NCBI GenBank assembly: GCA_042564455.1
Contig: JBHPLC010000003.1
Location: 8,394 to 72,393 of the forward strand
Source: Candidatus Zhuqueibacterota bacterium
GTDB taxonomy: Bacteria; SM23-31
Length of the DNA stretch: 64,000 bases
Direction of reading: 5' to 3'
Positions within the stretch are counted from its first letter, which is position 1, and every line of letters starts with the position of its first letter. The translations under genes and the position numbers were made by a program. The notes under the pieces were generated by a model that was not told the DNA's origin, did not search any database, and saw only the letters and a list, made by a program, of their open reading frames with translations. Shown here piece after piece: positions 860 through 56,525 of this stretch.

Positions 860-1057
860 CTGTTTGTCGGTATATATTAAGATAGAATTAATATTTATGA
901 AAAAGATTGTTTACCAAACCTAATAATGTAGCAAAAACATGAAAATATTGCAAATGGTTTAATTATGGGAGTAATTTGCGAATATTCGGATGGATGATAA
1001 GGATGTATTAATTCTGCCAGACTACCCTTCTAAGAAAGTGACCTTCGAACGGCAACA

Positions 1058-1097
1058 TCCCCCTCAGTCCCCCTTCGAAGGGGGAATTAAAGGGGGA
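1058..1097. repeat. GC-rich nested palindrome tcccccT-cagt-CCCCCTTCGAAGGGGG-aattaa-Aggggga in AT-rich intergenic space
   Basis: The inner 16-bp perfect palindrome is 1069-1084. The outer 7-bp arms are 1058-1064 and 1091-1097. No flanking T-run. Confidence 0.5.
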
Positions 1098-1189
1098 TGT
1101 ATAGTATAAAATATTTAATAAACTGGTCTACAAACTCAGTTTAAGGATACTACAACTACCGGCAATTGGATTTACACCCAATGATTGAC

Positions 1190-1933
1190 CTACTTAAAAA
1201 TGTTGGTCATTTTGGATTCGTCGAGTTTTATGTAGGTTGGTTCTGTTACCTCGACTGGATAGAACCATGAGTATTTCCAGATCTTCTCACCGGTCAGGAG
1301 AATTGAATAATATTCGTCAACCGAAAGGTAAGTCAGGTCTTGATCTTTTGTAATGGATTTGAACACGTACGCAAAGAATTTTCCTTTAGGGACTTTCGGA
1401 TAAAAAAAATGGCCGGTTTCCGAAACTTGTGCCAGGTACTTTATTTCGTTGTCCATGATCGCCTGCAGAGCATAGTTAAAACTTCCGCTTACATTCAGCA
1501 TTTCGGTCTTTGCCTGACGGTACAGCTGCTTTACACTGTCCGCTTCCGCAACAGTCCTCTCAACCAGGGCTTTATGTTCCCTGTAAGTATCCGAATTTTC
1601 ATTCCTCGAGCCGTAAATGGTCTTGAAGGTCATTTCGGCACTGATCGCAGTCTCTTCATAAACAGGGATATGTTCCTCGAGAGTTTTGATCAGATCCGAA
1701 ACCTCTAATGCATCCCTGTTATAATAGACTTTCATGGAATCTATAGCTGCCTGGATCCTTGCTGACATTAATATCACGATCATATTATCATAAACATTCA
1801 GTGAAACTTCCGGGGGCGTGTTTATTTCTATTTCCCCTTCGAGGGTGCTCCAGCGGTTTTTTTCGAGGCAAATGGCAAGTATAAATATTGATATGGTGAT
1901 CAGGACAATTAGAAAGGCGACAAATTTCATCAA
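1190..1933 (-). CDS. hypothetical N-terminally membrane-anchored protein
   Basis: 247-aa ORF with an N-terminal hydrophobic helix (FLIVLITISIFILAI). ATGA overlap with the downstream BamB-like gene suggests co-transcription. I recognise no motif. Confidence 0.5.
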   Translation of the reverse strand: MMKFVAFLIVLITISIFILAICLEKNRWSTLEGEIEINTPPEVSLNVYDNMIVILMSARIQAAIDSMKVYYNRDALEVSDLIKTLEEHIPVYEETAISAEMTFKTIYGSRNENSDTYREHKALVERTVAEADSVKQLYRQAKTEMLNVSGSFNYALQAIMDNEIKYLAQVSETGHFFYPKVPKGKFFAYVFKSITKDQDLTYLSVDEYYSILLTGEKIWKYSWFYPVEVTEPTYIKLDESKMTNIFK

Positions 1934-3072
1934 CTCTCCGGTTTTCCAAAGACATATAAAAATCTGTTCTCAACCGGGAATATCAGCTTACCATTGAAGT
2001 AAGCGGGATTTGACGATACCCGTCCTTCAACGGGATATTCCCAAAGAAGATCTCCTGTTGCGCTCTCCAAAGAATATACAATTTTATTTAAAGAACCAAA
2101 ATAAATTTTTGATCCGACTGCAAGACAGGATGTATTTACTACGGATCCAACGGCGAATTTCCACTGTTCTTCACCTGTCGCAGCATCCAGCGAATAAACA
2201 TTTTCATCGTTACAGCCGAAAATCACCCTTCCTCCGGCAACTGTGGGTGAGGAATAGACCGCACCGGCGGTCTTGAATTCCCAGTTTATGTTTCCCGATG
2301 CGGGATCCAGTGACAAAAGACGGTTTCCCACTGTACCCCAAAAGATCATTCTGCCGTCGGAAGCCGGTGATCCCCGCAGGATATCCCCGGTATCAAAACT
2401 CCAAATCTCACTACCTGAATTAATGTCCAGGGCGTATATTTTCCCTTTTATGGATCCTGCAAAGACCTTATCTCCAAGTACAAGCATCCCGGAGTAAACA
2501 CTGGAACCTGCATCGAATTCCCACTTGATCTCACCTGATTTTTTATCTAAACAGTATATGTCACCCTTGATATTTGCGGCGAATACATATTCATTGTAAA
2601 CAGAGGCTGCACTTTCGATGTATCCGAGGTCTTTTCGCCACAGATATTTACCTTTATGAATGTTATATGCCCGGAATGTCCTGTTTCCCTTTATGGTCGA
2701 ATAATAAAGCACACTGTCGTCATAAGCAGGAGCTCCAAACATCGGCTCCTTTATCTTCATCTCATCGATCTTGTCTCCTTCAGACAATTCAAATACTTCG
2801 ATAAAACCTTTTCTTGAAGTACAGATCACATTATTGTCCAGAACCACCATAGATGAGCTTATCATGGATTTAGGCTTTAACTTAAAAAGCAGTATAATGT
2901 CCCCATCGATCTTATCATAACTCATGTTGTTATGCAGCTGCCCCCCGCCGTACTCCGACCAGGGTTTTCCCGCATCTTCCTTTGCTACCCTGACACGTCC
3001 CGTACAAGCGGCAAAGAAAACACTCAGAATAAGAACCGCTGCTATAATATATTTTGGTCTAACCTTTTTCAT
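1930..3072 (-). CDS. PQQ-repeat beta-propeller lipoprotein, BamB-like
   Basis: Lipoprotein signal (LSVFFAAC). Repeated Y.LD..SG...W.F..G blades typical of PQQ/BamB propellers (YCLDKKSGEIKWEF, YALDINSGSEIWSF, LSLDPASGNINWEF, YSLDAATGEEQWKF, YSLESATGDLLWEY). Confidence 0.7.
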   Translation of the reverse strand: MKKVRPKYIIAAVLILSVFFAACTGRVRVAKEDAGKPWSEYGGGQLHNNMSYDKIDGDIILLFKLKPKSMISSSMVVLDNNVICTSRKGFIEVFELSEGDKIDEMKIKEPMFGAPAYDDSVLYYSTIKGNRTFRAYNIHKGKYLWRKDLGYIESAASVYNEYVFAANIKGDIYCLDKKSGEIKWEFDAGSSVYSGMLVLGDKVFAGSIKGKIYALDINSGSEIWSFDTGDILRGSPASDGRMIFWGTVGNRLLSLDPASGNINWEFKTAGAVYSSPTVAGGRVIFGCNDENVYSLDAATGEEQWKFAVGSVVNTSCLAVGSKIYFGSLNKIVYSLESATGDLLWEYPVEGRVSSNPAYFNGKLIFPVENRFLYVFGKPES

Positions 3073-3094
3073 AATATCTTTCTTTTTAACCAGA

Positions 3095-6037
3095 TTAAAA
3101 ATCCCAACCGAAAAAGAACTTGGTATAAGTGGATTTCTCTATATTTCTGAGGCTGCCGTTGAATCTTCTGCCTATATCCAGCCTGAATACTACACCGCCC
3201 AGAAAGTTAAATCTTAAACCTCCTCCTACACTGCCCAGTTTCTGCGGATACTCCATCGATGAAAAGATAATATCTTCTTTTTCATAATCATCGACCTTGG
3301 CGGCATCAATATATAAAGCTCCTCTTAATGATCTTATTCCAAAACCGCCGAAAGGAAATCTTATACCAATATCATCGATGAACGGGAATCTATACTCTGC
3401 CGATACAAAATCAATATGCTGTCCCCATATCCTCCACATACCGTATCCCCTGAGGTCCCAGCTCCCGCCAATATAGAACCTTCTTGCTTCTCTTCCTTTA
3501 TTTCTGTATGATGATAATCTGACAGCAAGAGCCTGCCGGTTGGATACACGGAAATACTTCCTCAGGTCGACCATTACGGTGCTGTAATTCACGTTGTTGA
3601 AACTGATATCTTTTGTCAATCCTACTGAAACAAGGTATCTCGAACCGTCCATTGGACCAGTGGGGCCCCAGAGAGAGTTATCCCAGACATAAGTGAGGAA
3701 ATTACCCGACAATAATGCCACTCTCTCCTGATCATCGACTAATCTGTCCCGCTCAGACCTGCCGAAATTGGAATCTATTTCAATTCTCTGGAAAGTCGAG
3801 ATCGGATAGCTCGCCCCGAAGAATCCTCCATAATACCTTTCATTGAAATAGAAATCAGACAGATTATATCTTCGTCCTGAGTAATGAAATACCCCGTAGC
3901 CGAAATTTGTCCGTTTTTTCAGTGAAGTTCTGGCAATTGCAAAATTAAAACTACGCAGGAGGCTCTCCATAGTCTGGGCAGTGTTGTAAAGCAGAAAATA
4001 ATATTGATCGTTGCCCAGAATGTCCGAGATGGCGATCTGCGCACCACTGATCGAGCTGTATATAGGATCATAAGACACCTGTCCCTGAGCAATGTCGAGA
4101 CTGTATGTTTTTGTATAGGACTTTACGTTTTTCCCCTCAATACTTGAGATCCTTCCGGGAGTCCAGGATTCAAAATCAACTATAACCGAGGTTGTTATTA
4201 CAGTTTTTTCCTCATAGCCTTTAAATGCATCTTTCAACTGTCTTATCTGGTAACTGTATTCCTCGAATGATGTGAAAAATATATCCCCGTCCGGCGTAAC
4301 TTCCGGATTGAAGACACCGGTCACAAAACTCGTGATCTTCTTGATCTCACCCGGGATATACATATTTGCCGAGACAGGATTATAAGTACCGGACATTGAG
4401 GTATTGTCATTTTTTGCCAGTAACAGTTCTGTATTGCTCTTTTTTATTTTCATCGGATCTGCCTGGACCAGTTCCATACTCATTGTATAGATATTCGATG
4501 CTCCGCCTCTGTCGGACGTAAAAACGACAAACTCTCCATCCGGAGACCACGTCGGGGCTGCATCAACGTGTGATCCTTCGGTCAGTTTAAATATCTCATC
4601 CAGGAAGAGATTCTTAATAAAAATATTATATCCCCCCTCTTTACCGAATTTAGATCTGTCAGAGGAAAAAACGATCGAACCGTCGTCCGGAGACCACCTG
4701 GGAGACAGATCTTCGTAAAAATCATCCGTATGCTGAGTAAGGATACCGGATTCGACATCAAGTATATAAATATCAGCGTGGCCGGACATGTTAACGGCTG
4801 AAAAAGTGATAAGTTTATTGTTGTTCGACCATGCGGGAGAAGACATGGAAACTATATTATCAAAAACAAAACTGTTAATCACGTCTTTTTCCATGGTGTC
4901 GAAGAGATAAAGGACGTCTTTTTCACCGCTTTTTGTAACGAAGGCAAGTATCCCCTCAGAATTCACGTCAATTGTGCTTTTCAGAAAATGAATCGTTTCG
5001 AAACGGCTGGTCCTTTCACCTTTTATAAGATTCCTGGTTTTCAGTTTTTCCTTTTCATAGGGCATTGTTACAATATTTGTATATCCGCTCGTATTTGAAA
5101 CAAAAGCTATATGTTTCTCGCCGTTATTATAATAAAAAGAAGGCGCTTCATTAAATCCTTCGTCAGTTATTTGTTTTGAGGCCATTCGAATAATATCATT
5201 GGTCTCTAAAACAGGATAATACTTCTTCTTTAAATGGTATACCCATTCATCATTAAGATCCGATAACTTTTTACCGAGCACATATTGTATGACATCTTCA
5301 AACTTTTTTTCGCGGATAATGTTCTCAAGGATTAATAGCAGTTTTTCTTCTCCGTACGTATCTTCTATATACCTGAGAAAGCTTTCAGCTTCTTTGTACA
5401 TAAGATATGAGCCGCTGATCAGACTGAATTTTGTTGCAGGGATCAGTGTATTCTCAATCACCTGATCGATCATGACCATTTCGGACCTGGAGTCACCTTC
5501 GCTTGACCAGACTTCCGCAATTCCTTCCGTAAACCACAGAGGCGGCTGTTTGAAATGAAATTTACCCTGATTTTTCTGTACCCAATAGACTTTACTGTGC
5601 ATAAATACATGAACAAGCTCATGCCGGATAACCTTCTTGAAGCTTGTTGCGGAACCGTCACTGGGTATGACAACCCTTCCTTTAAAAAACTCGAAAAAAC
5701 CGCCGACACCTTCGGGCAGGAAATTCGGAATGGTATTTGTTTGCTGGAAATGCAAATGAGAGCTGTAAAAAATAAGCGGGATCTTTGCTGTTATCGAGTG
5801 ATTGAACTTGCTTTCAAGCAGTTTATAGCTTTCTTCAGCGTAATAGGCGCCTCTTTCGGCTAATTCGCGCATTTCGGGATAATAATAAATATCAAAATGC
5901 TCAGTTGAAAGCACCATCCAGTCGAATTTAGTATACTGGATCTTGTTACGACCGAAATAAAAGCCCTGAGAAAATGCTTCGCTCAAGAAAACGGTGGTCA
6001 ATAAAACAGTTATAATGATATACTTTTTCATTTCCAT
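3095..6037 (-). CDS. large secreted protein: HExxH metallopeptidase-like N-domain + TolB/WD40-like propeller repeats + C-terminal Omp85-family beta-barrel
   Basis: Signal peptide, then a HELVH motif (IRHELVHVFMH). Repeated S/A-P-x-W-S-P-D-G blades (SPRWSPDDGSIVFSSDR, APTWSPDGEFVVFTSDRGG). C-terminal about 300 aa rich in alternating aromatic strands with an LRGY motif (the Omp85 loop-6 VRGF/Y signature). The protein ends FFFGWDF. Confidence 0.6.
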   Translation of the reverse strand: MEMKKYIIITVLLTTVFLSEAFSQGFYFGRNKIQYTKFDWMVLSTEHFDIYYYPEMRELAERGAYYAEESYKLLESKFNHSITAKIPLIFYSSHLHFQQTNTIPNFLPEGVGGFFEFFKGRVVIPSDGSATSFKKVIRHELVHVFMHSKVYWVQKNQGKFHFKQPPLWFTEGIAEVWSSEGDSRSEMVMIDQVIENTLIPATKFSLISGSYLMYKEAESFLRYIEDTYGEEKLLLILENIIREKKFEDVIQYVLGKKLSDLNDEWVYHLKKKYYPVLETNDIIRMASKQITDEGFNEAPSFYYNNGEKHIAFVSNTSGYTNIVTMPYEKEKLKTRNLIKGERTSRFETIHFLKSTIDVNSEGILAFVTKSGEKDVLYLFDTMEKDVINSFVFDNIVSMSSPAWSNNNKLITFSAVNMSGHADIYILDVESGILTQHTDDFYEDLSPRWSPDDGSIVFSSDRSKFGKEGGYNIFIKNLFLDEIFKLTEGSHVDAAPTWSPDGEFVVFTSDRGGASNIYTMSMELVQADPMKIKKSNTELLLAKNDNTSMSGTYNPVSANMYIPGEIKKITSFVTGVFNPEVTPDGDIFFTSFEEYSYQIRQLKDAFKGYEEKTVITTSVIVDFESWTPGRISSIEGKNVKSYTKTYSLDIAQGQVSYDPIYSSISGAQIAISDILGNDQYYFLLYNTAQTMESLLRSFNFAIARTSLKKRTNFGYGVFHYSGRRYNLSDFYFNERYYGGFFGASYPISTFQRIEIDSNFGRSERDRLVDDQERVALLSGNFLTYVWDNSLWGPTGPMDGSRYLVSVGLTKDISFNNVNYSTVMVDLRKYFRVSNRQALAVRLSSYRNKGREARRFYIGGSWDLRGYGMWRIWGQHIDFVSAEYRFPFIDDIGIRFPFGGFGIRSLRGALYIDAAKVDDYEKEDIIFSSMEYPQKLGSVGGGLRFNFLGGVVFRLDIGRRFNGSLRNIEKSTYTKFFFGWDF

Positions 6038-10880: not shown

Positions 10881-12224
10881 TTATTTTTTCGCAAATTTCC
10901 ATAAACTTGCCTGTGCTTTACTGACCAATACATCAAATGTTTGTCCGTCCATCGGGAAATCGGAATATCCAAAATCCAGCAGTATATCATTACCTTTGAT
11001 ACTCGCATCTTCTTCAACCTGTTCTTTGATCTTGCTTGCAATCTTTTCGGTAAGAATTTTTGTTTTTCCCTGTAAAATGACCATAAATGAGTCAAGACCT
11101 ATCTTTACTGCGGAATCTATTGGAGTAATGTTCTTCTGGATATATCCGTAAATTAATTCACCAATATCAAATATCTTTATATTAAAATTGGCATTCTTTT
11201 TAAGATAAAGTTTAAAAATCAATATACTTAAAGTCCCTCTGTATTCACCGGCCTTTTTTATAATATTAAAGAGTTCATTCTTAGCGCCCGACAGCGGATC
11301 TGTTAACAGAGCTTTTCTTTCTTCATTATACTGACCCAACCTTATCATAGGAGCAATCTGAACTGCCATCACTTCAAGGAGTTTGAGTTTTTCCTGATCT
11401 TCGTTATCTTTCAGATCAAACTGGTTAACAATAAAAAGCCCGACCAGTTTATTCTGGGCATTAAGCGGGATAGCTATAAAACTTTTTATCTTTTTCTTGT
11501 CACTATCACCGACATTTTTCTTGAAATTCTCATCTTTTTTAAAACCGTCAATGTCAACTGTTTCATTTGGACGTATTGCCTGTCCAATTATTCCCTCTCC
11601 GAGTTTTATTCTGAATTTGGATATTGTCTTTTTTGACAATCCGATACTCTTTTCAATACAAAAATCCTCATTTTTTTCATCAAAAAGCATAATACTGACT
11701 ACATTTATATCCAGGCTTGTCTCAATAGTGCTTAGTCCGAAGCTTAATACTTCATCCATTTCCTCACTGGTATTAATGATTTTACTCACATCATTGAGGA
11801 TGGATATATCTGCCAGGGCTTTTTCAATTGTTTTTGACAATTCCAGATTTGTTCTTTTAAGCCTTATCCTTTCAGAAACCTTTTTTACGGTCATCAAAAT
11901 TTCTGAAATATTAAAAGGCTTAAAGATATAATCAAAAACATCCTGTTTCAGCGCTTCTATAGCAGATTCAAGGCTTGCATATCCGGTAATCACGATCACT
12001 TCCGTTTCTTTATTTGCCTTTTTTACTGCTTTTGTAACCTGTATACCGTCAACTTTCGGCATTTTCAGGTCAGTAATAACGATGTCATAGAAATTAGACT
12101 GGATATCTTTAACAGCTTTGACAGGATCAGTATAACTTTTAACACGGAAATCTGAACTTTCAAGAACTTCAGAAATAATTTCTATTACTCCCGGTTCATC
12201 GTCTACTATCAAGATGTTTTCCAT
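10881..12224 (-). CDS. response regulator: REC + GAF + degenerate GGDEF domain
   Basis: REC: ILIVDDE...ITDLKMP..G...K. Central GAF-like region. The C-terminal GGDEF fold is recognisable (LTDPLSGAKNE ~ LTGLPNR; KIGLDSFMVIL in place of RYGGEEFVVIL), so the active site is probably inactive. Confidence 0.65.
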   Translation of the reverse strand: MENILIVDDEPGVIEIISEVLESSDFRVKSYTDPVKAVKDIQSNFYDIVITDLKMPKVDGIQVTKAVKKANKETEVIVITGYASLESAIEALKQDVFDYIFKPFNISEILMTVKKVSERIRLKRTNLELSKTIEKALADISILNDVSKIINTSEEMDEVLSFGLSTIETSLDINVVSIMLFDEKNEDFCIEKSIGLSKKTISKFRIKLGEGIIGQAIRPNETVDIDGFKKDENFKKNVGDSDKKKIKSFIAIPLNAQNKLVGLFIVNQFDLKDNEDQEKLKLLEVMAVQIAPMIRLGQYNEERKALLTDPLSGAKNELFNIIKKAGEYRGTLSILIFKLYLKKNANFNIKIFDIGELIYGYIQKNITPIDSAVKIGLDSFMVILQGKTKILTEKIASKIKEQVEEDASIKGNDILLDFGYSDFPMDGQTFDVLVSKAQASLWKFAKK

Positions 12225-12292
12225 TAAAATACTCCTTTATTTAAGAAAACCTTTCAGATCATATAAGAAATGAGGATATTAACGGGTAAGGT

Positions 12293-13930
12293 TTAAGTAA
12301 ATCTGGATTGGTAAGTGATCTTCATCTCTCCTTCCTTAGAGAAAACCATAGCCATTTTATATGTATATTCAGACATCATTTTACTCTGATCTATACTAAG
12401 AAGAACATTTCTGTAGATCGTGGTCGCCGAGATCTTCTTCTGCTCCTCGCTTATCATAACTTTAAATTCTTTTTGCAGCTCTTCTTTTTTCTTCTTAACA
12501 TCCTCCTTTTTCTCCTCTACTTTCTTCAGCTTTACCAATAATTCTTTCAGCTGTTTTGTTTTTGCTTCAGGAAATTTAGGAAGTTTCTTTTTAAGAAGTT
12601 CAATAAATTCTATCTCTTTTATCAGACTCTGTGATGCTTTTTCAAGATATGCTTCATCTCTTTCTATAATAAGCATCTTTTCGTATAATTCTCCTCCGAC
12701 ACGCCCCCCAACCTTAACATCCGTACGCAGATAACTTGCAGAACCGATAGTTTTTGCTTCTATTGATTTCTCAGCATAAAGTTTTCCGCCGATTATCGAT
12801 CCTCTGCCCTCTGTTGCTTTTATACTGTTTTCAGCGCTGACTATCGAATTCATAATATATTCGCCAACTGTAACATCATTTCCCACTTCAACAGTAGCCT
12901 CATTAATGAATTCAGCCCTGACATCCTTTGCTGCGATCAGTTTGGCTTTTTCCTGACCGACAACACCGCGGCTTATGACTATGTTTCCTTTCGATGAGAT
13001 AATTTCAGCGCCTTCAACAACACCCCTGATCCTGATATCACCTTCCGTCTTAACCTTAAATCCGGTTAAAACATCCCCTGATACCGCCACATCTCCGGTA
13101 AATTCAATATTTCCGGTTGAATAATCAACATCACCGTGAATTGCCAGAATGTTCTCTACGCTTAATCTGTCTTTTTGATGGACGATCCTGCCGCTTAAAG
13201 AAGCATACAAGGATAGTCCGTCCTGAGAAATATATGTATTTTTCCCCTGAGGCAGATTTTTATCTTTTCCGGTTGAATCTATAACCTCACCCAGGACATT
13301 CATTCCGTCCTGACCTTTTGTGGCAGGAATCTTTACAGCAAGCAATTGGTCTTTTTCAACTGTTCTGAGCATACTGATCTGATGAAAATCAACGCTGCCG
13401 TCATCCTTCACCAAAGGTTCTGTGCTGATATCGGTATCAACTTCAACTACTATCTGCGCTTCTTCACCGATCATTGCTTCTTCGCCTCTGGCTATTATCT
13501 CTTTCTCAACAAATATTCTATTTCTGATTATCTGTTTTATCTTTTCATAATCAACGTTATAGGTCACTCCCGATTCATATATCTTATGAAGGAGATCCCG
13601 TTCCGTGATTTCCACAGTATCAGTTGAGGGAAAGGTTACATCCAGGTAAGCTTCAAGAGCGTCTTTAGACACTGTAATCCGTATATAGTCATTTTTCTCT
13701 GATGAATATTCAACTAATGTATCAGCAATTTTAACAGGTTTCTTTAAGGTCTTCTTATATTGTTTGATAATATCATCATAAGGAGCCTCAAGTACTCCTA
13801 TCTGAAGTAACTTCTGTTCAAGAGTAGAAGAATCAAAACCATCCACATGTTCTGCATTGAAGACAAAAACACCCTCGTCTTCAATTTTCAAACCTAACTT
13901 TTCCAGTTCTTCTTTGTCAACGTAGCTCAT
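12293..13930 (-). CDS. FapA-like (DUF342) protein with beta-helix repeats and C-terminal K/E coiled coil
   Basis: Central repeats of the G-x-V/I pattern (NIEFTGDVAVSGDVLTGFKVKTEGDIRIRGVVEGAEIISSKGNIVISRGVVG...), typical of the DUF342/FapA beta-helix, followed by a lysine/glutamate coiled coil. Confidence 0.55.
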   Translation of the reverse strand: MSYVDKEELEKLGLKIEDEGVFVFNAEHVDGFDSSTLEQKLLQIGVLEAPYDDIIKQYKKTLKKPVKIADTLVEYSSEKNDYIRITVSKDALEAYLDVTFPSTDTVEITERDLLHKIYESGVTYNVDYEKIKQIIRNRIFVEKEIIARGEEAMIGEEAQIVVEVDTDISTEPLVKDDGSVDFHQISMLRTVEKDQLLAVKIPATKGQDGMNVLGEVIDSTGKDKNLPQGKNTYISQDGLSLYASLSGRIVHQKDRLSVENILAIHGDVDYSTGNIEFTGDVAVSGDVLTGFKVKTEGDIRIRGVVEGAEIISSKGNIVISRGVVGQEKAKLIAAKDVRAEFINEATVEVGNDVTVGEYIMNSIVSAENSIKATEGRGSIIGGKLYAEKSIEAKTIGSASYLRTDVKVGGRVGGELYEKMLIIERDEAYLEKASQSLIKEIEFIELLKKKLPKFPEAKTKQLKELLVKLKKVEEKKEDVKKKKEELQKEFKVMISEEQKKISATTIYRNVLLSIDQSKMMSEYTYKMAMVFSKEGEMKITYQSRFT

Positions 13931-14858: not shown

Positions 14859-16451
14859 TTATCTACCGGTGATATACTGCTTAACCGTTTCATTCAGCGG
14901 ACAATCGTTCTCAAAATCCCAGAATGTAGTTTGATAAAGCCGGGACAATGCTGCAAGATAGTCTATTCTTGCATTAAGAATGTTCAACTGTGCAGATTTT
15001 AGTCTCTGGTTGGATATGTCAAGATCGTTGGTGGAGATATCCCCGAGATTGAATTTCTCAAGATTGATATCATAGGTTCTCTGTGCAAGCTCAACGTTAC
15101 CGCTCTGCAGTTCGATCCTCACCCTTGCATTATTAAGGTCTTCAAGGTTTTGCTGCACCGAGATATCAAGCTGTTCTATAGCATAATCCATGGCTTTTTC
15201 CGAAAGCTCAAGCTGCAGTTCGGATCTCTGTGTTCTGATCTTTCTTCTCCCTGAATCCCATATCGGAATGTTAAGACTAAGACCGAGGGAATTTGTTTGT
15301 GTAAAATCCTTAAAAAGTTCATCAGTCCAACTCCAATCTCCCCTCCAGAATTCGGCAAAAGGATCTGACTCATTCAAACCGTAAGATCCTGAAAGATTAG
15401 CCTGTATCTTATCCTGAGCCTGTGTTACCCTGATATTGTTTTTCTGGTCGATCAGACTGTTTCTTGATCGAAGCAAATTCAAACTGTTCTCAAGGGCTTT
15501 CTGTTTAGCAATCTCAGCATCGATATTAATAAACTGTATTTCAATACCTTCTTCTGCAGGTACATCTATCTCCTGATCCTGTTCCAGTCCGATAAGTCTT
15601 TTAAAGTTATCCTTTGCCTTACTGTAATTGAGTTTTTGCTGTTCAAAAGAGTTTTCGGCATTCTTGAAAGTCAGCTCATTCTCCATCATCTGAACTTCAG
15701 CAAGTATACCGGCAGCATATTTATTCTGTGCTGTTTCAAAATTAAATCTTGAATTTTCAAAATCCTTTTCATCGATCTCGAGGTTTCTTTTACTCCGAAC
15801 CAGACCATAATACGCTGATAAAACATCCCCCCATATACCGTTTTCTGTTCCTTCATAAGATTTTTCTGCATAATCAAAATCACGCATACTGCTTTCAAAT
15901 TCCATCATTTTAGTATTCGGCTGAAAAAGAGGCTGTGTCAACCTTAACCTGAAAGAATCAGTCCATCTGTGTGTTTCAGTGATTTTGCCATTGTTTTCAG
16001 AATACTGATTTGAAGTAGTGTATCCTGCTGTCAGTGAAAGGTCACTGTTCGTCCATCTCAACGGCTGTGTGATACTAAGGTTTGCATTTGTTGAAATGGT
16101 TTTATCGTTCCTGTAGACATTTCCAGTTGGTGTAGGTATTTCACGGATACTCTGATTATAAGATGGTAGGTTAAATGATAACCTGGTACTCGTTTTCTGG
16201 TTTGCCAGGCTTAACTGGCGCCCGAGATCGCTGATCTCAAAATTAGTTCTGCTTGTTTTGATATTATAACTCTGTGTTAACGCTATCTGCAGCGCATCTT
16301 CAAGTGTCAATACCATTACATCCTGGCCAATACCATCCGCCGGTATGGCAAAAAGAAAGGCAAACACCATTATAAGGTTCAAATAAGCCGCCTTCGACTT
16401 CAACAACTTCGCTTTCAACATTTCAAAACTCCTTTGATATTTTCTGTTCAA
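14859..16451 (-). CDS. TolC-like outer membrane efflux protein (OEP family)
   Basis: Signal peptide, then two repeats of the helix/strand pattern with a leucine/glutamine-rich alpha-barrel. The start more likely is the internal Met at 16421 (MLKAKLL...). Confidence 0.6.
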   Translation of the reverse strand: MNRKYQRSFEMLKAKLLKSKAAYLNLIMVFAFLFAIPADGIGQDVMVLTLEDALQIALTQSYNIKTSRTNFEISDLGRQLSLANQKTSTRLSFNLPSYNQSIREIPTPTGNVYRNDKTISTNANLSITQPLRWTNSDLSLTAGYTTSNQYSENNGKITETHRWTDSFRLRLTQPLFQPNTKMMEFESSMRDFDYAEKSYEGTENGIWGDVLSAYYGLVRSKRNLEIDEKDFENSRFNFETAQNKYAAGILAEVQMMENELTFKNAENSFEQQKLNYSKAKDNFKRLIGLEQDQEIDVPAEEGIEIQFINIDAEIAKQKALENSLNLLRSRNSLIDQKNNIRVTQAQDKIQANLSGSYGLNESDPFAEFWRGDWSWTDELFKDFTQTNSLGLSLNIPIWDSGRRKIRTQRSELQLELSEKAMDYAIEQLDISVQQNLEDLNNARVRIELQSGNVELAQRTYDINLEKFNLGDISTNDLDISNQRLKSAQLNILNARIDYLAALSRLYQTTFWDFENDCPLNETVKQYITGR

Positions 16452-16650: not shown

Positions 16651-19600
16651 CTAATTTCTTTTATCCTGCGGATTTAAATTTAAAGGAATGAACCGAACCG
16701 CATCAGCATATAACCATCCATCCGCCTCATCTGATAAAACAACAGCAGCATTTTCCCCCATTTCAAAATAATAGCTGCCGAGGCTGTTCCATCCTGCCGG
16801 GAGGAAATGCCATTCTAAAGAGACACTTTCTATACCCCCGCTATGATGAACAGAATAATTATACCTTGTTGCAGAATTCCTTGTAAATGAGTTTGATTCC
16901 CCCTTCCCCTTAAAGAGGAAAACCTGCACATCATAAAGTCCTGACTCAGGCATTTCAGTTTCCCAAGTTGCAGGGATACTTCCCGATCCTTTTCTTTTTT
17001 CCCTGTAAGTTACCTTATACTTTCCGAAAGCATCATCATCAAGCCTTATTCTCCATACCTCCCTTACTTCTGATGGTCTTAAGAACTTCCGTTCCTGCTC
17101 ACGAAAAGCAGAAAAACCCGGATCGAGGTCATCAACAATAATTCCTTCAACCTCCAGGTTGTCGGTAATAATCTCTTTTATACCGTCCCAGGCTGTAACC
17201 TTTTCAAAATCCTCAGGAACCTGCAGTCTTTCTCTAATAGCACTCTGATTCTGTGAGAAAATCGGATCGATAATGATCTCTGTAGGAACATCTTCCGTTA
17301 TAAATCCGAACATCAGTTCCTGTTTTCCATTTATTCTGCTTTTCTTTGTTATTTCATCATTCTTGGTCTTTAAACTGACCTTCAAAAATCCCTCATAATT
17401 TTCACCATTTTTTATTTTCAGATCAACCACATACTGAACACCCTTTTCTCCGCCTTTTGTTTTAAAAACTTCGAGGTTGGTGACCTTGTAACCCGGAAAC
17501 GCATTTCCAAATAACCAGCTGTCAAAAAACCAGTCCAGGGATTCACCTGATACTTCTTCACAGACCTTCTTGAAATCAAGGATCGAGGCATCTTTGTAAC
17601 TGTACTCCTGCACAAATTTATTAAGTATCCGTTTGTATTTTTCCGGTGTGATGATCTCTCTTAAAACCTTGTTTATTTTTTCCCCTTTCACCATCATCAG
17701 AACATGAAAATTATTATTATTCAGATCGGGTTCGATCTCTGTCAGGGAGGTCGATCTTATCAACTGATACAATGTGTCTACGGGCACTCCGTAATCTCTC
17801 TCAAACTCCATAACTTCCCATTCCACACCTTCAATTACAAAATACGGATCGCTGCGGTTTGTTACAAAGAACTTTATTTCCTCATTTATCAGATTCTGCA
17901 GATAATTATCAAAATAATACTCAAAAACGGGGTACGGGGAATCAACAAAATTCAGTCTCTGTGACCAGAAACTTGACATTGGGGCCGGTATTAGATTTTC
18001 CTCCATTACGCGTTCGAACATTCTTACTTTATTCTTGAAGATCTTATTAACAATAATATCGACAAACATATCTTTTTTTATGTCAGCATCACTTTTTTTC
18101 TCACCTTTTCTATCAGCATTGTTTTTTGCTCTCTCGAACTTCTCCTCATAAGAACCTGCCACATTATATTCCGGAACAAAAATAATTCCGGCCTGCGCGG
18201 ATTCATCAGACATCAATCCGTTAAAAGCATAGTATTGAAATGTTAATGGTATCTCAATATAAGACAGACTTGAATATGGATAATCCAGTCCTGTTAATTC
18301 TTCAATACCCCGGAAAATATCTTCTACTATCGGTTTGATCTCTCCTGTGACTTCAGAGAAAAACTCAGCAATTACCTGATGTTTTTCACTTAAAACCAGG
18401 TTGATATTTATTCCGCTTATATCAGTCGAGTACATCCGATATCTTCCTGTAACCAGAGGGATGCTTTTAATTGGAATATCCGTACCGTATGTAAATACTT
18501 TTCTGCCCTGTGAACTTGTTGAGTCTATTCCGATAAGATCCACCGGCGCTACAGCAGTCAGGTCTTCCGGAAGATCAAATGTCCATTTTCCTGTAAAAAA
18601 CTGTACAGGGAATTTTTCAGGATACATATAGGCATATGGATTCCCCAGCTGCGGATACCATAAACTTTCCTTCAATAGATACCCAAAATCTCTTGTTAAT
18701 ATCGACGATTCATTTTCAAATGTTGCTATAGGGACCATAATACCGTTATTTGGTTTATTTATCACACCCGGATCAATGTCACTTCTGTTCAGGTAAAGTA
18801 TCCTTTTATCAATATCCCCCTGAAATTCAAAAATGATCTGCCGTTTTTCACCTTCGGAGAACGGTTTGTCCAGTTTAACGGATATTTCGATGTCATTTCT
18901 TGAATAGTTCAGGTTATTCCCGTTACCACCTGAAATTTTCCTGATCTCAAGGCCTGGATTCAAAGAAAACTGAATTTCGTTATAATCAAGATCAGATTTT
19001 GCCTCAAGTTCGATCTTCGAGACACCCAAGACAGGAATACCATCACTGTAAAACTTATAATCAAGATCGTAATTTCTGATATAATAATTACTGTCGGATT
19101 CTTTATTAAATGAAATAGTGATTATATCGTGTTTTTCATTTTTACGTTCGGCTTCTGCGATCCAGGAAGAATAGAATATAAATAATGCCCCGGCAAGACA
19201 CCCCAGGCCGCCGAATGAGGTCAGGTTAGCATAAAACTTTGACTGGTGCAGCCTCGGATAAAATAACACTACTGTCAGGCTAAAGAAGAAAACTCCTAAA
19301 AGAACGTAGAAGATCCTCTGTTTTATAAATATTGCCTCATTCAGTATATCAACAAGATCAGAGGGAAATAACGGAAGAAAAAATCCCACATAATCTGTAA
19401 ATATCCATAGCTGATTTAAAGTGAAAGCATGGTCTCTGGATAAAAGGAACATACCAATGGTATAAGCCATAACAAGTGTAAAAACAGCAGCGGTATTTCT
19501 TATCAACGAAGATATGAATATAATAAATGCTGTTGAATAAAAAAGTGCCGGTATATACAGCAGAGCAAAATATTTGAAATAAAGATCAAGTGACCATGAC

Positions 19601-20007
19601 CAGTTGACAAGCCTGTTGACTAAAGACAGAATAAGAACAACAGATGATGTAAGTAGAATTAATGGAATAACAATACCAAGAAATTTTCCCAAAATATATT
19701 CAAGGTTTGTCATAGATTTGGTATTCATGACTTCATTGACCTGGTATCTGCTGTCTTTCTCGCGGAAATCCCCTGAAAGAAAAATTACGATCAGTATCTG
19801 GAAAATATTGAAATAATAGAACAATACATAAGGTCCTGTGCCTTCAAGGCCTGCCGCTCCGAATTCAACTCCGAACCTTTTTGAAATTATAAAATACACA
19901 TTAAAAATTATCGGTAATATGGCAGATAGGATTGCCAATATCCAGAACTTCCAGGTCCTGACAAGCATCAGTGATTCATATTTTGCTATAGTAAAAAGAT
20001 ATTTCAT
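16651..20007 (-). CDS. ABC-2-type permease (N-terminal about 290 aa, 6 TM helices) fused to about 830-aa extracytoplasmic domain
   Basis: The N-terminal multi-TM region resembles ABC-2 permeases. It lies immediately downstream of an ABC-2 ATPase. No HExxH or GAMEN motif in the exodomain. Confidence 0.55.
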   Translation of the reverse strand: MKYLFTIAKYESLMLVRTWKFWILAILSAILPIIFNVYFIISKRFGVEFGAAGLEGTGPYVLFYYFNIFQILIVIFLSGDFREKDSRYQVNEVMNTKSMTNLEYILGKFLGIVIPLILLTSSVVLILSLVNRLVNWSWSLDLYFKYFALLYIPALFYSTAFIIFISSLIRNTAAVFTLVMAYTIGMFLLSRDHAFTLNQLWIFTDYVGFFLPLFPSDLVDILNEAIFIKQRIFYVLLGVFFFSLTVVLFYPRLHQSKFYANLTSFGGLGCLAGALFIFYSSWIAEAERKNEKHDIITISFNKESDSNYYIRNYDLDYKFYSDGIPVLGVSKIELEAKSDLDYNEIQFSLNPGLEIRKISGGNGNNLNYSRNDIEISVKLDKPFSEGEKRQIIFEFQGDIDKRILYLNRSDIDPGVINKPNNGIMVPIATFENESSILTRDFGYLLKESLWYPQLGNPYAYMYPEKFPVQFFTGKWTFDLPEDLTAVAPVDLIGIDSTSSQGRKVFTYGTDIPIKSIPLVTGRYRMYSTDISGININLVLSEKHQVIAEFFSEVTGEIKPIVEDIFRGIEELTGLDYPYSSLSYIEIPLTFQYYAFNGLMSDESAQAGIIFVPEYNVAGSYEEKFERAKNNADRKGEKKSDADIKKDMFVDIIVNKIFKNKVRMFERVMEENLIPAPMSSFWSQRLNFVDSPYPVFEYYFDNYLQNLINEEIKFFVTNRSDPYFVIEGVEWEVMEFERDYGVPVDTLYQLIRSTSLTEIEPDLNNNNFHVLMMVKGEKINKVLREIITPEKYKRILNKFVQEYSYKDASILDFKKVCEEVSGESLDWFFDSWLFGNAFPGYKVTNLEVFKTKGGEKGVQYVVDLKIKNGENYEGFLKVSLKTKNDEITKKSRINGKQELMFGFITEDVPTEIIIDPIFSQNQSAIRERLQVPEDFEKVTAWDGIKEIITDNLEVEGIIVDDLDPGFSAFREQERKFLRPSEVREVWRIRLDDDAFGKYKVTYREKRKGSGSIPATWETEMPESGLYDVQVFLFKGKGESNSFTRNSATRYNYSVHHSGGIESVSLEWHFLPAGWNSLGSYYFEMGENAAVVLSDEADGWLYADAVRFIPLNLNPQDKRN

Positions 20008-20020
20008 ATTATTAGATCAG

Positions 20021-20953
20021 TTAAGCATTTATAAGAATTTCATCTTCATGTAATTTTGTACCTGTCTGAATCTCCATAAAGTAAATATAAGCATCTTCCA
20101 GGTTAGGTTCAGCAGGAACTGCCGAAAACCCGTTGACTTCATCAGATACCACCCTGACTTCAACACATTCCGGCTGCATGATCATGGACAAGACACTGAC
20201 ATTTTCCTTCAGCAATCCCAGTTCATCGTGTCCTATCTTTAGTATCCATGTTTTTCCCCGGGCGTTATCTATCAGATTAGCCGGTTTATCATGATAGACT
20301 ATTTCACCTTCGTGCAGAATTGCCAGGTCATTACAAGTACTTGATATATCATTAACAATATGTGTAGATAAAACAATAGTGACATGGCCGCTTAATTCCG
20401 ACAGCAGATTCCTGAACCTGATCCTCTCTTCCGGATCGAGACCTGTAGTCGGTTCATCAACGATCAGAAGCTTTGGAGAATTTACCAGAGCCTGTGCGAT
20501 CCCGAGCCTGCGCACCATTCCTCCTGAGAACGTCTTTACTTTTCTGTCCTTCAAATCCTGCAGATTAGTCAGGGACATTATCCAGTCGACGACTTTTTTC
20601 CTGTGCTTTTTATCTTTCATCCCGTTGAGTTTTGCAATATAATGGAGAAATTCCTGCGCATACAATGTCGGGAAAACCCCGAATTCCTGCGGCAGGTATC
20701 CTAACGAACGCCTGATTTTCTCCCGATCCTTTGAGAAATCATGGCCAAAAACAGATATTTTACCTGATGTAGGCATTGACAGTGTTGCCAGTATCTTCAT
20801 CAATGTAGTTTTCCCTGCCCCATTTGGTCCCAACAGACCAAACATACCATTCTCTATCGACAGTGAAATATCTTTAAGTGCGGCAAATTTAGATTTCCCT
20901 TTGCCGTAGACTTTCCATATGTTATTTATTTCAATGGTACTGTTCATAGTCAA
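20021..20953 (-). CDS. ABC transporter ATP-binding protein (ABC-2 subfamily)
   Basis: GPNGAGKTT, FSGGMVRRLGIAQAL, LIVDEPTTGLD, H-loop LSTH. 13-nt gap to the permease-fusion gene. Confidence 0.85.
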   Translation of the reverse strand: MTMNSTIEINNIWKVYGKGKSKFAALKDISLSIENGMFGLLGPNGAGKTTLMKILATLSMPTSGKISVFGHDFSKDREKIRRSLGYLPQEFGVFPTLYAQEFLHYIAKLNGMKDKKHRKKVVDWIMSLTNLQDLKDRKVKTFSGGMVRRLGIAQALVNSPKLLIVDEPTTGLDPEERIRFRNLLSELSGHVTIVLSTHIVNDISSTCNDLAILHEGEIVYHDKPANLIDNARGKTWILKIGHDELGLLKENVSVLSMIMQPECVEVRVVSDEVNGFSAVPAEPNLEDAYIYFMEIQTGTKLHEDEILINA

Positions 20954-55200: not shown

Positions 55201-56525
55201 GGTGCACGGTTAAGCATTACAGGATGATTCCTAATAACGATTTCAAGTATATCCCAGATCTCTTTACCCTTTTTATCAACAAGCTTTTTTGCACTTTTTA
55301 CTGTTTTTACAAGGCCTTTTTCGACAAGTTTCCTAATAATAAACGGTTTGAACAGTTCTACCGCCATATCTTTTGGCAGACCGCATTCTCCCAGTCTCAG
55401 TTCGGGCCCGACAACAATAACAGATCTTCCGGAATAATCAACACGTTTACCAAGAAGATTCTGTCTGAAACGACCCTGCTTACCTTTAAGCATATCGCTT
55501 AATGATTTAAGAGGTCTGTTGCCATCACTTCTTACCGCTGTTGCTTTACGGCCATTATCAAAAAGAGAATCAACTGCTTCCTGAAGCATTCTTTTTTCGT
55601 TTCTCAGGATCACTTCAGGTGCTCTGATCTCTATCAGGTTTTTCAGTCTGTTATTTCTGATTATAACTCGTCTGTAAAGATCATTCAAGTCGCTTGTAGC
55701 AAATCTTCCACCCTCAAGAGGAACCAACGGCCGCAATTCAGGAGGAATTACGGGTATTACATCTAAAACCATCCACTCCGGTTTGTTGAAATTCGAAGTT
55801 TCATCAATCTTAAATCGCTCTATTACTTTCAGTCTTTTTAAAATATCGCTTTTTCTCTGGGCTGAAGTTTCAATTTTAAGCTGTGCCCTGAGAGTTATTG
55901 AAAGATCTCTTAAATCAACTCTTTTGAGAAGCTCTTTTATAGCTTCACCACCAATTTTTGCAGCGAATTTATCATCCGCTTCAGCATCAAGTCGGGACTT
56001 TTCTTCCGGAAACTCATTAATGATCCTGAAGTATTCTTCTTCCGGTATCAGTTCTCTGGGTTTCAAGCCGGTTTTTCCCGGTGAAATAACTACGTAAGAT
56101 TCATAATAAATAACTTTTTCAAGATCTTTAACCGACATACCAAGAATGTATCCGATTTTGCTGGGCAGAGAACGGAAATACCATATATGAACAACCGGAG
56201 TTGCCAGTTGAATATGCCCCATTCTTTCTCTGCGGACACTCTTCATAGTAATTTCAACGCCACACCTGTCACAAATAATGCCTTTATAGCGGATCCTTTT
56301 GTATTTTCCGCAATGACATTCCCAATCCCGAACAGGCCCAAAAATTTTCTCGCAGAACAGTCCGTCTTTTTCAGGCTTGAATGAGCGATAATTGATTGTT
56401 TCGGGCTTAGTTACTTCCCCATAAGATTGCGCAAGTATAGTATCCGGAGATGCTAAATTAATTGAAATCTTTGAGTAAGTTTTACTTACACCGAAATCGA
56501 TACCTGATTTGGTATTTAAAGTCAA
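52233..56525 (-). CDS. rpoC: DNA-directed RNA polymerase subunit beta prime
   Basis: 1430 aa. Zn-finger [28 protein letters not shown] active-site motif. Confidence 0.95.

Follow-up and report, generated by a model that had tools for sequence, protein, structure and literature searches.

Omp85 proteins form the core of outer-membrane biogenesis, and almost all that is known of them comes from the POTRA-bearing BamA, TamA and TpsB. The locus described here raises the question of what an Omp85-type barrel does when a predicted zinc peptidase and a beta-propeller stand on its N-terminal side instead of POTRA, and which neighbouring genes belong with it. We analysed a window of 64,000 nt from a Candidatus Zhuqueibacterota bacterium (KSB1; GCA_042564455.1, contig JBHPLC010000003.1, positions 8,394-72,393 of the forward strand), in which a minus-strand gene trio spans 6037..1190 (Table 1). 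It is transcribed in the order ORF1 (the Omp85 protein), ORF2 (a PQQ lipoprotein) and ORF3 (an anchored protein), and judging by the homologues counted below the reading frames are far from chance. The stated coordinates (3095..6037, 1930..3072 and 1190..1933) hold, with all three frames on the minus strand. The initial annotation put the partners upstream, but read along the transcript ORF2 and ORF3 come after the Omp85 gene. Its claim of translational coupling holds for ORF2 and ORF3, where stop and start overlap in TGATG, but not for ORF1 and ORF2, which are 22 nt apart. Because of this overlap we take the ATG at 1930 as the true start of ORF3, so that the membrane-anchored protein listed at 247 aa keeps its N-terminal anchor but has 246 aa. 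A nested hairpin is the probable end of the operon; a simple terminator scan missed it because it has no T-run. As one part of the explanation preferred below, ORF1 may well be co-transcribed with the PQQ-type propeller lipoprotein and the small membrane-anchored protein, which we hold with moderate confidence.

Table 1. Features of the gene trio and of the hairpin behind it (positions in the 64,000-nt window).
Feature	Size or residues	Position	Strand	Remarks
ORF1	980 aa	3095..6037	-	WD40-like Omp85: signal peptide, clan-MA peptidase, six-bladed propeller, 16-strand barrel
Predicted Sec signal peptide (ORF1)	aa 1-23	5969..6037	-	MEMKKYIIITVLLTTVFLSEAFS, then QG; hydrophobic core followed by A-F-S cleavage-type motif; putative site
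Mature N-terminal motif QxFYFGRNKxQY (ORF1)	aa 24-35	5933..5968	-	near-invariant in family alignment
Clan-MA (gluzincin) zinc peptidase domain (ORF1)	aa 36-290	5168..5932	-	Pfam Peptidase_MA_2, fold match
HELVH zinc-binding and catalytic motif (ORF1)	aa 139-143 (H139, E140, H143)	5609..5623	-	all three residues invariant
WFTEG motif (ORF1)		5522..5536	-	W168, E171, G172 invariant
Six-bladed TolB/PD40-type beta-propeller (ORF1)	aa ~291-620	4178..5167	-	low-confidence insertion aa 526-557 in blade 5
16-stranded Omp85-type beta-barrel (ORF1)	aa ~640-980	3098..4120	-	immediately C-terminal to propeller, without POTRA between
LRGY, loop-6 (V/I)RG(Y/F)-type motif (ORF1)	aa 862-865	3443..3454	-	between strands 11 and 12 of model
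YIDAA, counterpart of Omp85 (F/G)xDxG (ORF1)	aa 909-913	3299..3313	-	strand 13; D911 invariant
FGWDF, terminal aromatic beta-signal-like motif (ORF1)		3098..3112	-	C-terminal; conserved in alignment
ORF2	380 aa	1930..3072	-	PQQ-type (BamB-like) beta-propeller lipoprotein; Pfam and NCBIfam scores, lipobox
ORF3	246 aa from ATG at 1930	1190..1930	-	one N-terminal transmembrane helix, rest without family match
G+C-rich nested hairpin		1055..1100	-	~90 nt past ORF3 stop; RNAfold -32.7 kcal/mol

Domain architecture of ORF1

In the AF2 model, residues 2-20 form a lone helix and residues 18-35 have a pLDDT below 50, despite the conservation of the mature N-terminal motif, in which Y35 is invariant and conservation reaches 90% or more at Y27, F28, G29, R30, N31, K32 and Q34 (conservation was read throughout from an alignment of 83 sequences, 44-61% identical to ORF1). 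The peptidase domain that follows matches Peptidase_MA_2 at 39.9 bits against a cut-off of 32.4, and it shows the features of clan MA(E) gluzincins: the fold is thermolysin-like, the active-site helix bears HExxH, and a Glu follows further along the chain. By analogy with gluzincins, E171, 28 residues past H143, is likely the third zinc ligand. Since H139, E140, H143, E171 and Y214 are invariant across the 83 sequences, peptidase activity is probably retained. The nearest structural relatives are secreted endopeptidases (M30 lugdulysin and the M9 collagenases), which bears out the peptidase-like fold proposed earlier for this region. Our preferred explanation takes this domain to be a clan-MA zinc peptidase of the M9/M30/M1 type with its catalytic site intact. 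The propeller matches PD40 at 65.5 bits, and no Pfam match to POTRA was obtained in ORF1 at E<=1; the segment between propeller and barrel (aa 558-640) is modelled by AF2 as all-beta propeller strands and a linker. The initial description, with a TolB-like propeller and an HExxH peptidase where POTRA would be expected, stands. ORF1 as TolB itself was rejected: it scores 103 bits with the TolB equivalog TIGR02800 (cut-off 343), only propeller residues align, and the TolB N-terminal domain is absent.

The Omp85 nature of the barrel was reached by a less direct route. No match to PF01103 was found at E<=10, either with whole ORF1 or with its C-terminus alone. The assignment is made because full-length homologues at ~46% identity score 43-51 bits with PF01103 (cut-off 24 bits) and more distant members 54-63 bits, because the family profile matches a PDB 'POTRA domain-containing protein' at its C-terminal end (9ccg_A, E 9e-4), and because the predicted structure has a fold match to a BamA-like barrel. 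The Omp85 barrel that had been proposed is therefore upheld by the 16-stranded model and by the homologues, but not by a Pfam match of ORF1 itself. HELVH, LRGY and the terminal FGWDF are all present as first described, and ORF1 carries both motifs of the Omp85 superfamily (loop 6 and strand 13). In the block GGSWDLRGY, G857, S859, W860 and R863 are invariant and G858, D861, L862 and G864 at least 90% conserved; YIDAA has Ala where the family consensus FxDAG has Gly; and at the C-terminus F975, F976, G977 and D979 are invariant, with W978 and F980 at least 90% conserved. ORF1 falls outside the classical, POTRA-bearing definition of Omp85 and differs from BamA and TamA in having an enzyme and a propeller at its N-terminus. 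BamA, with five POTRA and the BamA equivalog, was rejected as an identity, since neither feature was found and no BamA/TamA NCBIfam model is among the ORF1 matches at E<=1. A type Vd or patatin-like Omp85 was likewise rejected, with no patatin or POTRA match in Pfam. It may be noted that the NCBI name 'BamA/TamA family outer membrane protein', carried by some homologues, reflects barrel homology only.

The architecture, which the initial annotation had implied to be new, was catalogued in 2014 as the WD40-like Omp85 subfamily (Heinz & Lithgow, Front Microbiol 5:370, PMC4104836), which lacks POTRA, as do the metallo and noNterm subfamilies. In its members PF01103 is accompanied by between one and five PF07676 copies (Table S2), and their Phyre hits (Table S3) are the BamA/TamA barrel, TolB and a 'best aminopeptidase hit' (1z5h, 4kxd, 3qnf, 4ar1), for proteins from Caldithrix, Rhodothermus, Chloroherpeton, Cloacimonas and Sorangium (PMC4104836). 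ORF1 shares with them the Omp85 barrel, the N-terminal PD40/TolB-like repeats, the aminopeptidase-like region and the absence of POTRA; from this domain architecture and the published Phyre hits, it is a KSB1 member of the subfamily. Also, a protein at least 90% identical to that of one related locus is labelled Caldithrix abyssi. In the main text of that study the N-terminus figures as a propeller, and neither the peptidase nor the gene neighbourhood is taken up; KSB1 was outside its sampling and the PQQ/PEGA operon is not mentioned (PMC4104836). WD40-like Omp85 proteins were still called uncharacterised in 2024 (PMC11116518), and the earlier summary, an outer-membrane module for assembly or proteolysis that awaits characterisation, is still fair.

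Partner genes and conserved neighbourhood

ORF2 is an eight-blade-sized PQQ-type propeller (PQQ_2 142.8 bits, Beta-prop_ACSF4 165.4 bits) with a lipobox at its N-terminus (...VFFAAC). It shares with BamB a length of ~380 aa, the propeller type, the lipobox, a gene beside an Omp85 gene and matches to PF13360 and TIGR03300. Yet the BamB equivalogs are reached only below their cut-offs (TIGR03300 151.9 bits, E 2e-44, cut-off 285.2; NF008351 106 bits, cut-off 423), so that ORF2 as a BamB equivalog was not accepted, and generic PQQ propellers in the PDB (3hxj, E 8e-28) match more strongly than BamB (E 2e-18). The BamB-type lipoprotein of the initial annotation is thus right as to PQQ repeats and lipobox, but these scores place ORF2 nearer the generic propellers built of PQQ repeats than BamB. 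BamB binds BamA at the POTRA domains of BamA, whereas the Omp85 protein beside ORF2 has none.

At E<=1e-5 the homologues of ORF1 number more than 4,400; at E<=1e-30 it matches 1,116 representatives of clusters made at 50% identity. In the related loci with enough flank, from KSB1, Ignavibacteria, Calditrichia and Kryptonia, the Omp85 gene is immediately followed by a same-strand PQQ lipoprotein gene in 66 of 68 cases, and a gene for a PEGA-domain membrane protein comes next after it in 50 of 58. The trio Omp85-PQQ-PEGA is still present at 33-35% identity, and the flanking genes are unrelated housekeeping genes. This conserved PQQ-lipoprotein and PEGA operon around a WD40-like Omp85 gene is what is new here. 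The partner genes are not universal in the family: among five distant members (29-31% identity) on contigs with downstream sequence, four lack the downstream PQQ gene, two of them having a convergent SGL/Vgb_lyase-type propeller gene instead. One of these four has lptE close downstream, and another distant member sits downstream of a SurA-like rotamase gene. In the fifth distant member no PQQ gene is apparent either, its downstream genes not having been compared with the PQQ protein.

In the KSB1 lineage studied here, ORF3 occupies the PEGA position. It has no Pfam or NCBIfam family, only one sub-threshold fn3_3 match; a protein database search returned only ORF3 itself, a homologue was seen in just 1 of 80 related loci (L001, also KSB1), and hhalign shows no relationship with the PEGA protein that most loci have there (probability 3%). 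ORF3 therefore looks from its sequence to be a lineage-specific third partner, and the expected co-occurrence of the trio holds for the PQQ gene but not for this third gene. The resemblance to yfgM-bamB that had been suggested is not borne out: ORF3 has no YfgM or TPR match, its gene follows that of the propeller, and it shares with YfgM the N-terminal anchor only. The PEGA partners begin with a signal-peptide-like stretch and carry two hydrophobic helices at the C-terminal end, a layout suggestive of an inner-membrane anchor, and in the PQQ orthologues the lipobox Cys is followed by G-L-[KR]-type residues without an acidic surface-export signal.

A proposed tethered protease and its alternatives

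The explanation that we prefer, at roughly even chances of being right, is an outer-membrane-tethered periplasmic metalloprotease complex for quality control or processing of envelope proteins. The 16-stranded barrel would anchor ORF1, a single secreted polypeptide, in the outer membrane, with peptidase and TolB-type propeller sitting where BamA has its POTRA; the propeller or propellers would capture or gate unfolded polypeptide, the HExxH...E site would cleave it, and the PQQ lipoprotein, with the PEGA protein of most lineages, would serve as scaffold or substrate-presenting subunit. It is this capture followed by cleavage that would make the system a tethered protease. The analysis shows the identities of the domains and the conservation of the active-site motifs, the barrel motifs and the operon; that the proteins form a complex, that it is periplasmic, what it acts on and what it does for the cell are inferred. 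The periplasmic side is chosen because the PQQ lipoproteins have no acidic export signal, because of the PEGA anchor, and because of the precedent of PlpD. PlpD is the only studied enzyme-Omp85 fusion, and its enzyme domain is periplasmic, not secreted, a precedent also for a barrel that can be a scaffold and not a translocase (Hanson et al. 2024, PMC11116518). Both proteins have an enzyme N-terminal to an Omp85 barrel, but PlpD has a patatin lipase and one POTRA, ORF1 a gluzincin peptidase and a propeller without POTRA. Some functional analogies may also be drawn. BepA, an M48 protease with TPR, is a periplasmic zinc metalloprotease acting on stalled outer-membrane proteins at the BAM complex, and in tricorn and prolyl-oligopeptidase-family enzymes propellers gate access to the active site. 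The precomputed Pfam matches of homologues include Tricorn_N and Tricorn_2nd, but the family profile reaches tricorn protease only at E 0.07, outside the significance threshold. BepA belongs to M48 and the tricorn and prolyl-oligopeptidase enzymes are serine peptidases, as against the M9/M30/M1-like gluzincin of ORF1; none is barrel-fused, and homology goes no further than propeller or clan level.

A dedicated outer-membrane insertase or translocase of the BAM/TAM kind, in which propeller and lipoprotein replace POTRA and BamB as docking platforms for substrates or chaperones and the peptidase trims or clears clients, seems to us rather unlikely, although it has the most in its favour among the alternatives. 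All Omp85 proteins characterised before PlpD assemble or translocate proteins (PMC11116518, PMC4104836), and Heinz & Lithgow saw the WD40-like subfamily as reminiscent of a BamA-BamB fusion (PMC4104836). Also, the loop-6 RG(Y/F), the strand-13 Asp and the BamA-like barrel are conserved, the BamB-type lipoprotein is a near-obligate neighbour, and single members adjoin lptE or follow the SurA-like rotamase gene. A true insertase or translocase role would fit the conserved Omp85 motifs just as well, but these are superfamily-wide and therefore not discriminating; ORF1 has no POTRA, ORF2 falls short of the BamB equivalog cut-off, the invariant metalloprotease site argues that proteolysis is central and not accessory, and PlpD shows an Omp85 scaffold with a function other than insertion (PMC11116518). 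Export of peptidase and propeller through or alongside the barrel, as a type-V-like surface protease digesting extracellular proteins for nutrition, is improbable. It would agree with the secreted endopeptidases among the structural relatives and with the largely organotrophic life of the carrier lineages. Its model, the original type-Vd proposal for PlpD, has been overturned by the periplasmic enzyme domain (PMC11116518), and the pore through which ~600 aa of folded peptidase and propeller would need to pass is closed in the known Omp85 structures (PMC4104836). Moreover, the partner lipoproteins lack an acidic export signal, the PEGA partners look inner-membrane anchored, and the neighbours of the operon are housekeeping genes, not genes for nutrient uptake. 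Very improbable is a purely structural protein with a non-catalytic binding module, for example an envelope tether like TolB-Pal: the TolB-like propeller would fit it and the possible inner-membrane anchor of the PEGA partner hints at a trans-envelope assembly, but HExxH, the distal Glu and the Tyr, invariant in 83 of 83 sequences, are hard to explain without catalysis, and the TolB N-terminal domain is missing with the TolB equivalog far below cut-off.

Meaning for the family

Going beyond the preferred tethered protease, and as an unlikely extension, the Omp85-protease could form, together with the PQQ lipoprotein and the PEGA or anchored protein, a previously unrecognised three-component envelope machine conserved in Ignavibacteria, Calditrichia, Kryptonia, KSB1 and relatives. 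At its seam the barrel would pick out outer-membrane proteins that bear a beta-signal or are misassembled, and the propellers would pass them on to the gluzincin ('BAM-like degradase'), or it would be a dedicated assembly-and-maturation machine, with a possible inner-membrane link through the third subunit. The WD40-like subfamily is large and its gene stands in a housekeeping context in several FCB-group phyla and relatives, ORF1 of the window being otherwise an ordinary member. The conserved neighbourhood shows which three genes belong together for joint expression, and the invariant peptidase site, the M30/M9-like fold and the linkage to a BamB-like lipoprotein and PEGA protein yield a testable hypothesis on how these bacteria may police or process their envelope proteins.

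Domain architecture and conserved residues of ORF1

The AlphaFold2 model of the whole of ORF1, the 980-aa protein (83 aligned sequences; pLDDT 83, pTM 0.80), contains a peptidase domain, a propeller and a barrel, and the pTM of this model suggests that the three may be held in a fixed arrangement. The peptidase domain modelled separately gave a pLDDT of 79. Pfam matched Peptidase_MA_2 with 39.9 bits at aa 136-269, above the cut-off of 32.4, and PD40 repeats with 65.5 bits, the NCBIfam matches to TolB, flagellinolysin and Dpp5 were all sub-threshold, and PDB TolB sequences matched aa 365-521 (E 3e-13). The initial annotation, made from the sequence alone, had read ORF1 as an Omp85 barrel preceded by an HExxH peptidase and a TolB-like propeller without POTRA, and this reading is correct by Pfam, homologues, profile and fold. 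Of the Pfam search that it proposed, the peptidase and PD40 parts gave matches but a direct Omp85 match was absent, both for the whole protein and for the C-terminus alone at E<=10. The Omp85 assignment is based instead on the homologues, of which those about 46% identical to ORF1 match Pfam Omp85 with 43-51 bits and more distant ones with 54-63 bits, on a family profile that matches the C-terminal end of the PDB 'POTRA domain-containing protein' 9ccg_A (E 9e-4), and on the fold match. ORF1 has an Omp85-type barrel at its C-terminus and a peptidase fold around HExxH; neither a non-barrel C-terminus nor a non-peptidase HExxH region was found. No POTRA domain was detected by Pfam, nor is there one in the model, where the last blade leads through a short linker into barrel strand 1.

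Conservation was read from the 83 aligned sequences, which are 44-61% identical to ORF1. Invariant among them are the HExxH residues H139, E140 and H143, E171 of WFTEG (28 residues past the second His), Y214, R863 of the LRGY loop-6 motif and D911 of the FxDAG-type strand-13 motif, together with most residues of the terminal FFFGWDF. In structure the peptidase comes closest to M30 and M9 endopeptidases, followed by M1 aminopeptidases, an order of likeness that makes endoproteolysis by the modelled domain plausible. The mature N-terminal motif QxFYFGRNKxQY is almost invariant across the family, yet its pLDDT is below 50 (disordered), and a second conserved low-confidence loop (aa 98-110, QQTNTxPxFxPEG) lies immediately ahead of the invariant GGFFE. 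Each of the two segments might act as a docking strand or as a flap over the active site. The insertion in blade 5 probably explains, for the most part, why the closest relatives, with about 980 aa, are longer than most others, with about 940 aa.

Features of the operon and of ORF1 in the window
Feature	Position	Strand	Size or residues	Remarks
ORF1	6037..3095	-	980 aa	First gene in transcription direction
Motif QxFYFGRNKxQY of ORF1	5933-5968	-	aa 24-35	Right after predicted signal-peptide cleavage site
Alpha/beta peptidase domain of ORF1			aa ~36-290	AlphaFold2 model
Propeller of ORF1, six four-stranded blades			aa ~291-620	AlphaFold2 model
Low-confidence insertion in propeller blade 5	4367-4462	-	~30 residues, aa 526-557	AlphaFold2 model
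Barrel of ORF1, 16 long strands			aa 645-978	AlphaFold2 model
ORF2	3072..1930	-	380 aa	Second gene
ORF3	1933..1190 as called	-		Third gene; TTG start listed
Nested G+C-rich hairpin, CCCCC..CCCCCTTCGAAGGGGG..GGGGG	1055-1100	-		~90 nt past ORF3; -32.7 kcal/mol

Gene order and the two partner proteins

ORF2 and ORF3 had been placed upstream of the Omp85 gene, and the order of transcription puts both downstream of it. Only 22 nt separate ORF1 from ORF2, and the stop codon of ORF2 overlaps an ATG of ORF3 in the sequence TGATG, with GGAG six bases upstream; because of this overlap and the GGAG, the true start of ORF3 is most likely at 1930, for a predicted product of 246 aa. The hairpin past ORF3 lies in the A+T-rich spacer before the next gene, lacks a T-run and is probably the terminator of the operon. 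A promoter and terminator scan gave counts no higher than the shuffle level. The operon is preceded in the window by coaE and a pilT-type ATPase gene, and 'candidate division KSB1 bacterium' records hold a 100%-identical partial protein and an identical ORF3 product.

ORF2 is a PQQ-type propeller with a lipobox (PQQ_2 142.8 bits, Beta-prop_ACSF4 165.4 bits). Its match to the BamB model TIGR03300 (E 2e-44) reaches 151.9 bits, under the cut-off of 285.2, and in sequence it is less like the solved BamB structures than like generic PQQ-repeat propellers. ORF3 has a single N-terminal hydrophobic helix, Pfam and NCBIfam assigned it to no family, and a protein database search returned nothing other than ORF3 itself. 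Among the best 80 of at least 494 related loci its sole detectable relative is in the closest KSB1 locus, L001, and both proteins have sub-threshold matches to the small beta-sandwich families fn3_3, SdrD_B and NOMO. The suggested analogy with yfgM-bamB fails on gene order, on the lineage-specific nature of ORF3 and on the lack of a family match, the YfgM comparison included. ORF3 was also considered as a diverged form of the PEGA protein that takes third place at most related loci, and no relation was detectable (E 0.88 with an HMM of 38 PEGA partners, hhalign probability 3%).

Other contents of the window were recorded as well. An MsbA-like ABC exporter gene (ABC_membrane domain; 2-853, -) begins some 340 nt past the operon and continues beyond the window edge. 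This adjacency was not seen at the other loci with identified flanking genes, and the adjoining of a lipid/LPS exporter to an outer-membrane module may be coincidence. The only matches of a 1,118-aa protein (16651-20007, -) are a short stretch of Peptidase_M1 (aa 764-831) and Golvesin_C at the C-terminus; its gene is directly downstream of an ABC ATPase gene (20021-20953, -) and upstream of a TolC-like OEP gene (14859-16451), an unusual combination. At 10881-13930 (-) a GAF-domain response regulator adjoins a FapA-family protein (FapA_N and FapA beta-solenoid). The long ORFs at 52233-56525 and 56543-60328 are by size and position probably RNA polymerase subunits beta-prime and beta, in which case the window would be core chromosome.

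Conservation of the module

At least 494 relatives came from a scan that took one genome per species. The best 80 loci were kept; they belong to KSB1, Ignavibacteria/Ignavibacteriota, Calditrichia, Kryptonia and MAGs labelled Bacteroidota. Among these best 80, 68 loci extend at least 1.3 kb downstream, and at 66 of them a PQQ-propeller gene follows directly on the same strand; a PEGA protein gene comes next at 50 of the 58 with enough further sequence. This PEGA partner (about 255-280 aa) has two PEGA domains (PF08308) and, at its C-terminus, two hydrophobic helices. The co-occurrence proposed for the trio is seen for the Omp85-PQQ pair; ORF3 is not detectably related to the usual third gene. 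Nearly all PQQ ORFs of the related loci have the lipobox Cys. Many of them, as listed from the first start codon, begin with MGFLM, as would fit an overlap of their start with the stop of the Omp85 gene. The same peptide is found at the junction of P0187 (...FFRVGFLMRPRM...LLAAC), a 1,321-aa homologue called as one gene (L091 3001-6966, +) in which the Omp85 protein is joined to the PQQ propeller. As Rosetta-stone evidence of interaction this protein was set aside, because the reading frame at the junction is the overlapping one that encodes the signal peptide of the lipoprotein itself and the fusion is on one contig only, so that a frameshift artefact of assembly is most likely.

Adjacency of the PQQ gene persists in a member at 33% identity and that of the PQQ-PEGA pair in one at 35%. 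Six further members at 29-31% identity were checked, one being on a contig without flanking genes. In the other five no PQQ gene was seen as the next gene downstream: a convergent gene for an SGL/Vgb_lyase-type propeller is present in two, lptE lies two genes downstream in one (L086 8547-9068, +), and in the remaining two the downstream genes are unannotated or unrelated. SGL/Vgb_lyase/NHL-type propeller proteins of about 420-450 aa (L081 5610-6971, -; L088 7748-9103, -; L089 9862-11127, +) are encoded beside the Omp85 gene or the trio in distant members at 29-35% identity, in two cases convergent and downstream of dapF-dapA-dapB, and may be an alternative or extra propeller partner. A SurA-like double-rotamase gene (L084 346-1866, +) is found a few kb upstream of another distant member; it and lptE hint weakly at a tie to outer-membrane biogenesis. 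Extended synteny was considered and rejected, the genes past the trio being unrelated housekeeping genes that vary by lineage (PilT/CoaE in the window; elsewhere PtsI, PGI and polyprenyl synthase upstream and Crp, PHP and RibH downstream). An exhaustive search gave 1,116 cluster representatives (50% identity) at E<=1e-30, and most of the best 150 have 900-1,100 aa, the remainder being mostly shorter and fragment-like.

Relation to known systems and proposed function

Heinz & Lithgow 2014 (PMC4104836) divided the Omp85/TpsB superfamily into ten subfamilies, among them the 'WD40-like', listed in Table S2 as PF01103 plus one to five PD40 repeats. For members from Caldithrix, Rhodothermus, Chloroherpeton, Cloacimonas, Sorangium and others, Table S3 gives Phyre matches to the BamA/TamA barrel, TolB and M1/M9-type peptidases; the paper discusses neither the peptidase nor any gene neighbourhood. 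ORF1 shows the features of this subfamily and differs from BamA in having no POTRA domain, as ORF2 differs from BamB proper in its score. Hanson et al. 2024 (PMC11116518) still give the subfamily as uncharacterised, our literature search found no later study of it, and a recent Bacteroidota BAM/TAM paper on TamL (PMC12045153) does not mention it. No paper was found that joins Omp85 with PD40 and a peptidase, or Omp85 with PEGA, and the term 'WD40-Omp85' was found in just two papers. Public homologues carry generic names ('BamA/TamA family outer membrane protein', 'PD40 domain-containing protein', 'peptidase MA family metallohydrolase', 'WD40-like Beta Propeller Repeat').

ORF1 combines an intact gluzincin active site with a TolB-type propeller and a BamA-type barrel, and is inherited along with a propeller lipoprotein, in most cases also with a PEGA membrane protein. 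As the likeliest reading we propose that its enzyme and propeller would lie in the periplasm beneath the barrel, that the propellers would catch or gate unfolded polypeptide for the zinc site, and that the complex may serve the quality control or processing of envelope proteins. Indirect support for the periplasmic site comes from the lipoprotein partners, where no acidic signal for surface export follows the Cys, from the PEGA partners, which look anchored in the inner membrane, from PlpD, the one enzyme-Omp85 fusion studied so far, with its periplasmic patatin domain (PMC11116518), and from the pTM of the whole-protein model. A protease displayed on the cell surface is improbable beside these signs, and a non-catalytic tether, a reading that gives the intact active site no part, is very improbable indeed. 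A genuine insertase or translocase with propellers standing in for POTRA/BamB would be in line with the comparison of the subfamily to a BamA-BamB fusion by Heinz & Lithgow (PMC4104836); we regard it as possible, if doubtful. A three-component Omp85-based degradase or maturation machine is rather unlikely.

ORF1 is a new KSB1 member of the experimentally untouched WD40-like subfamily, the architecture of which was catalogued in 2014. To this the present analysis adds a near-obligate operon with a PQQ lipoprotein and a PEGA protein, and a conserved active site that is plausibly endoproteolytic.
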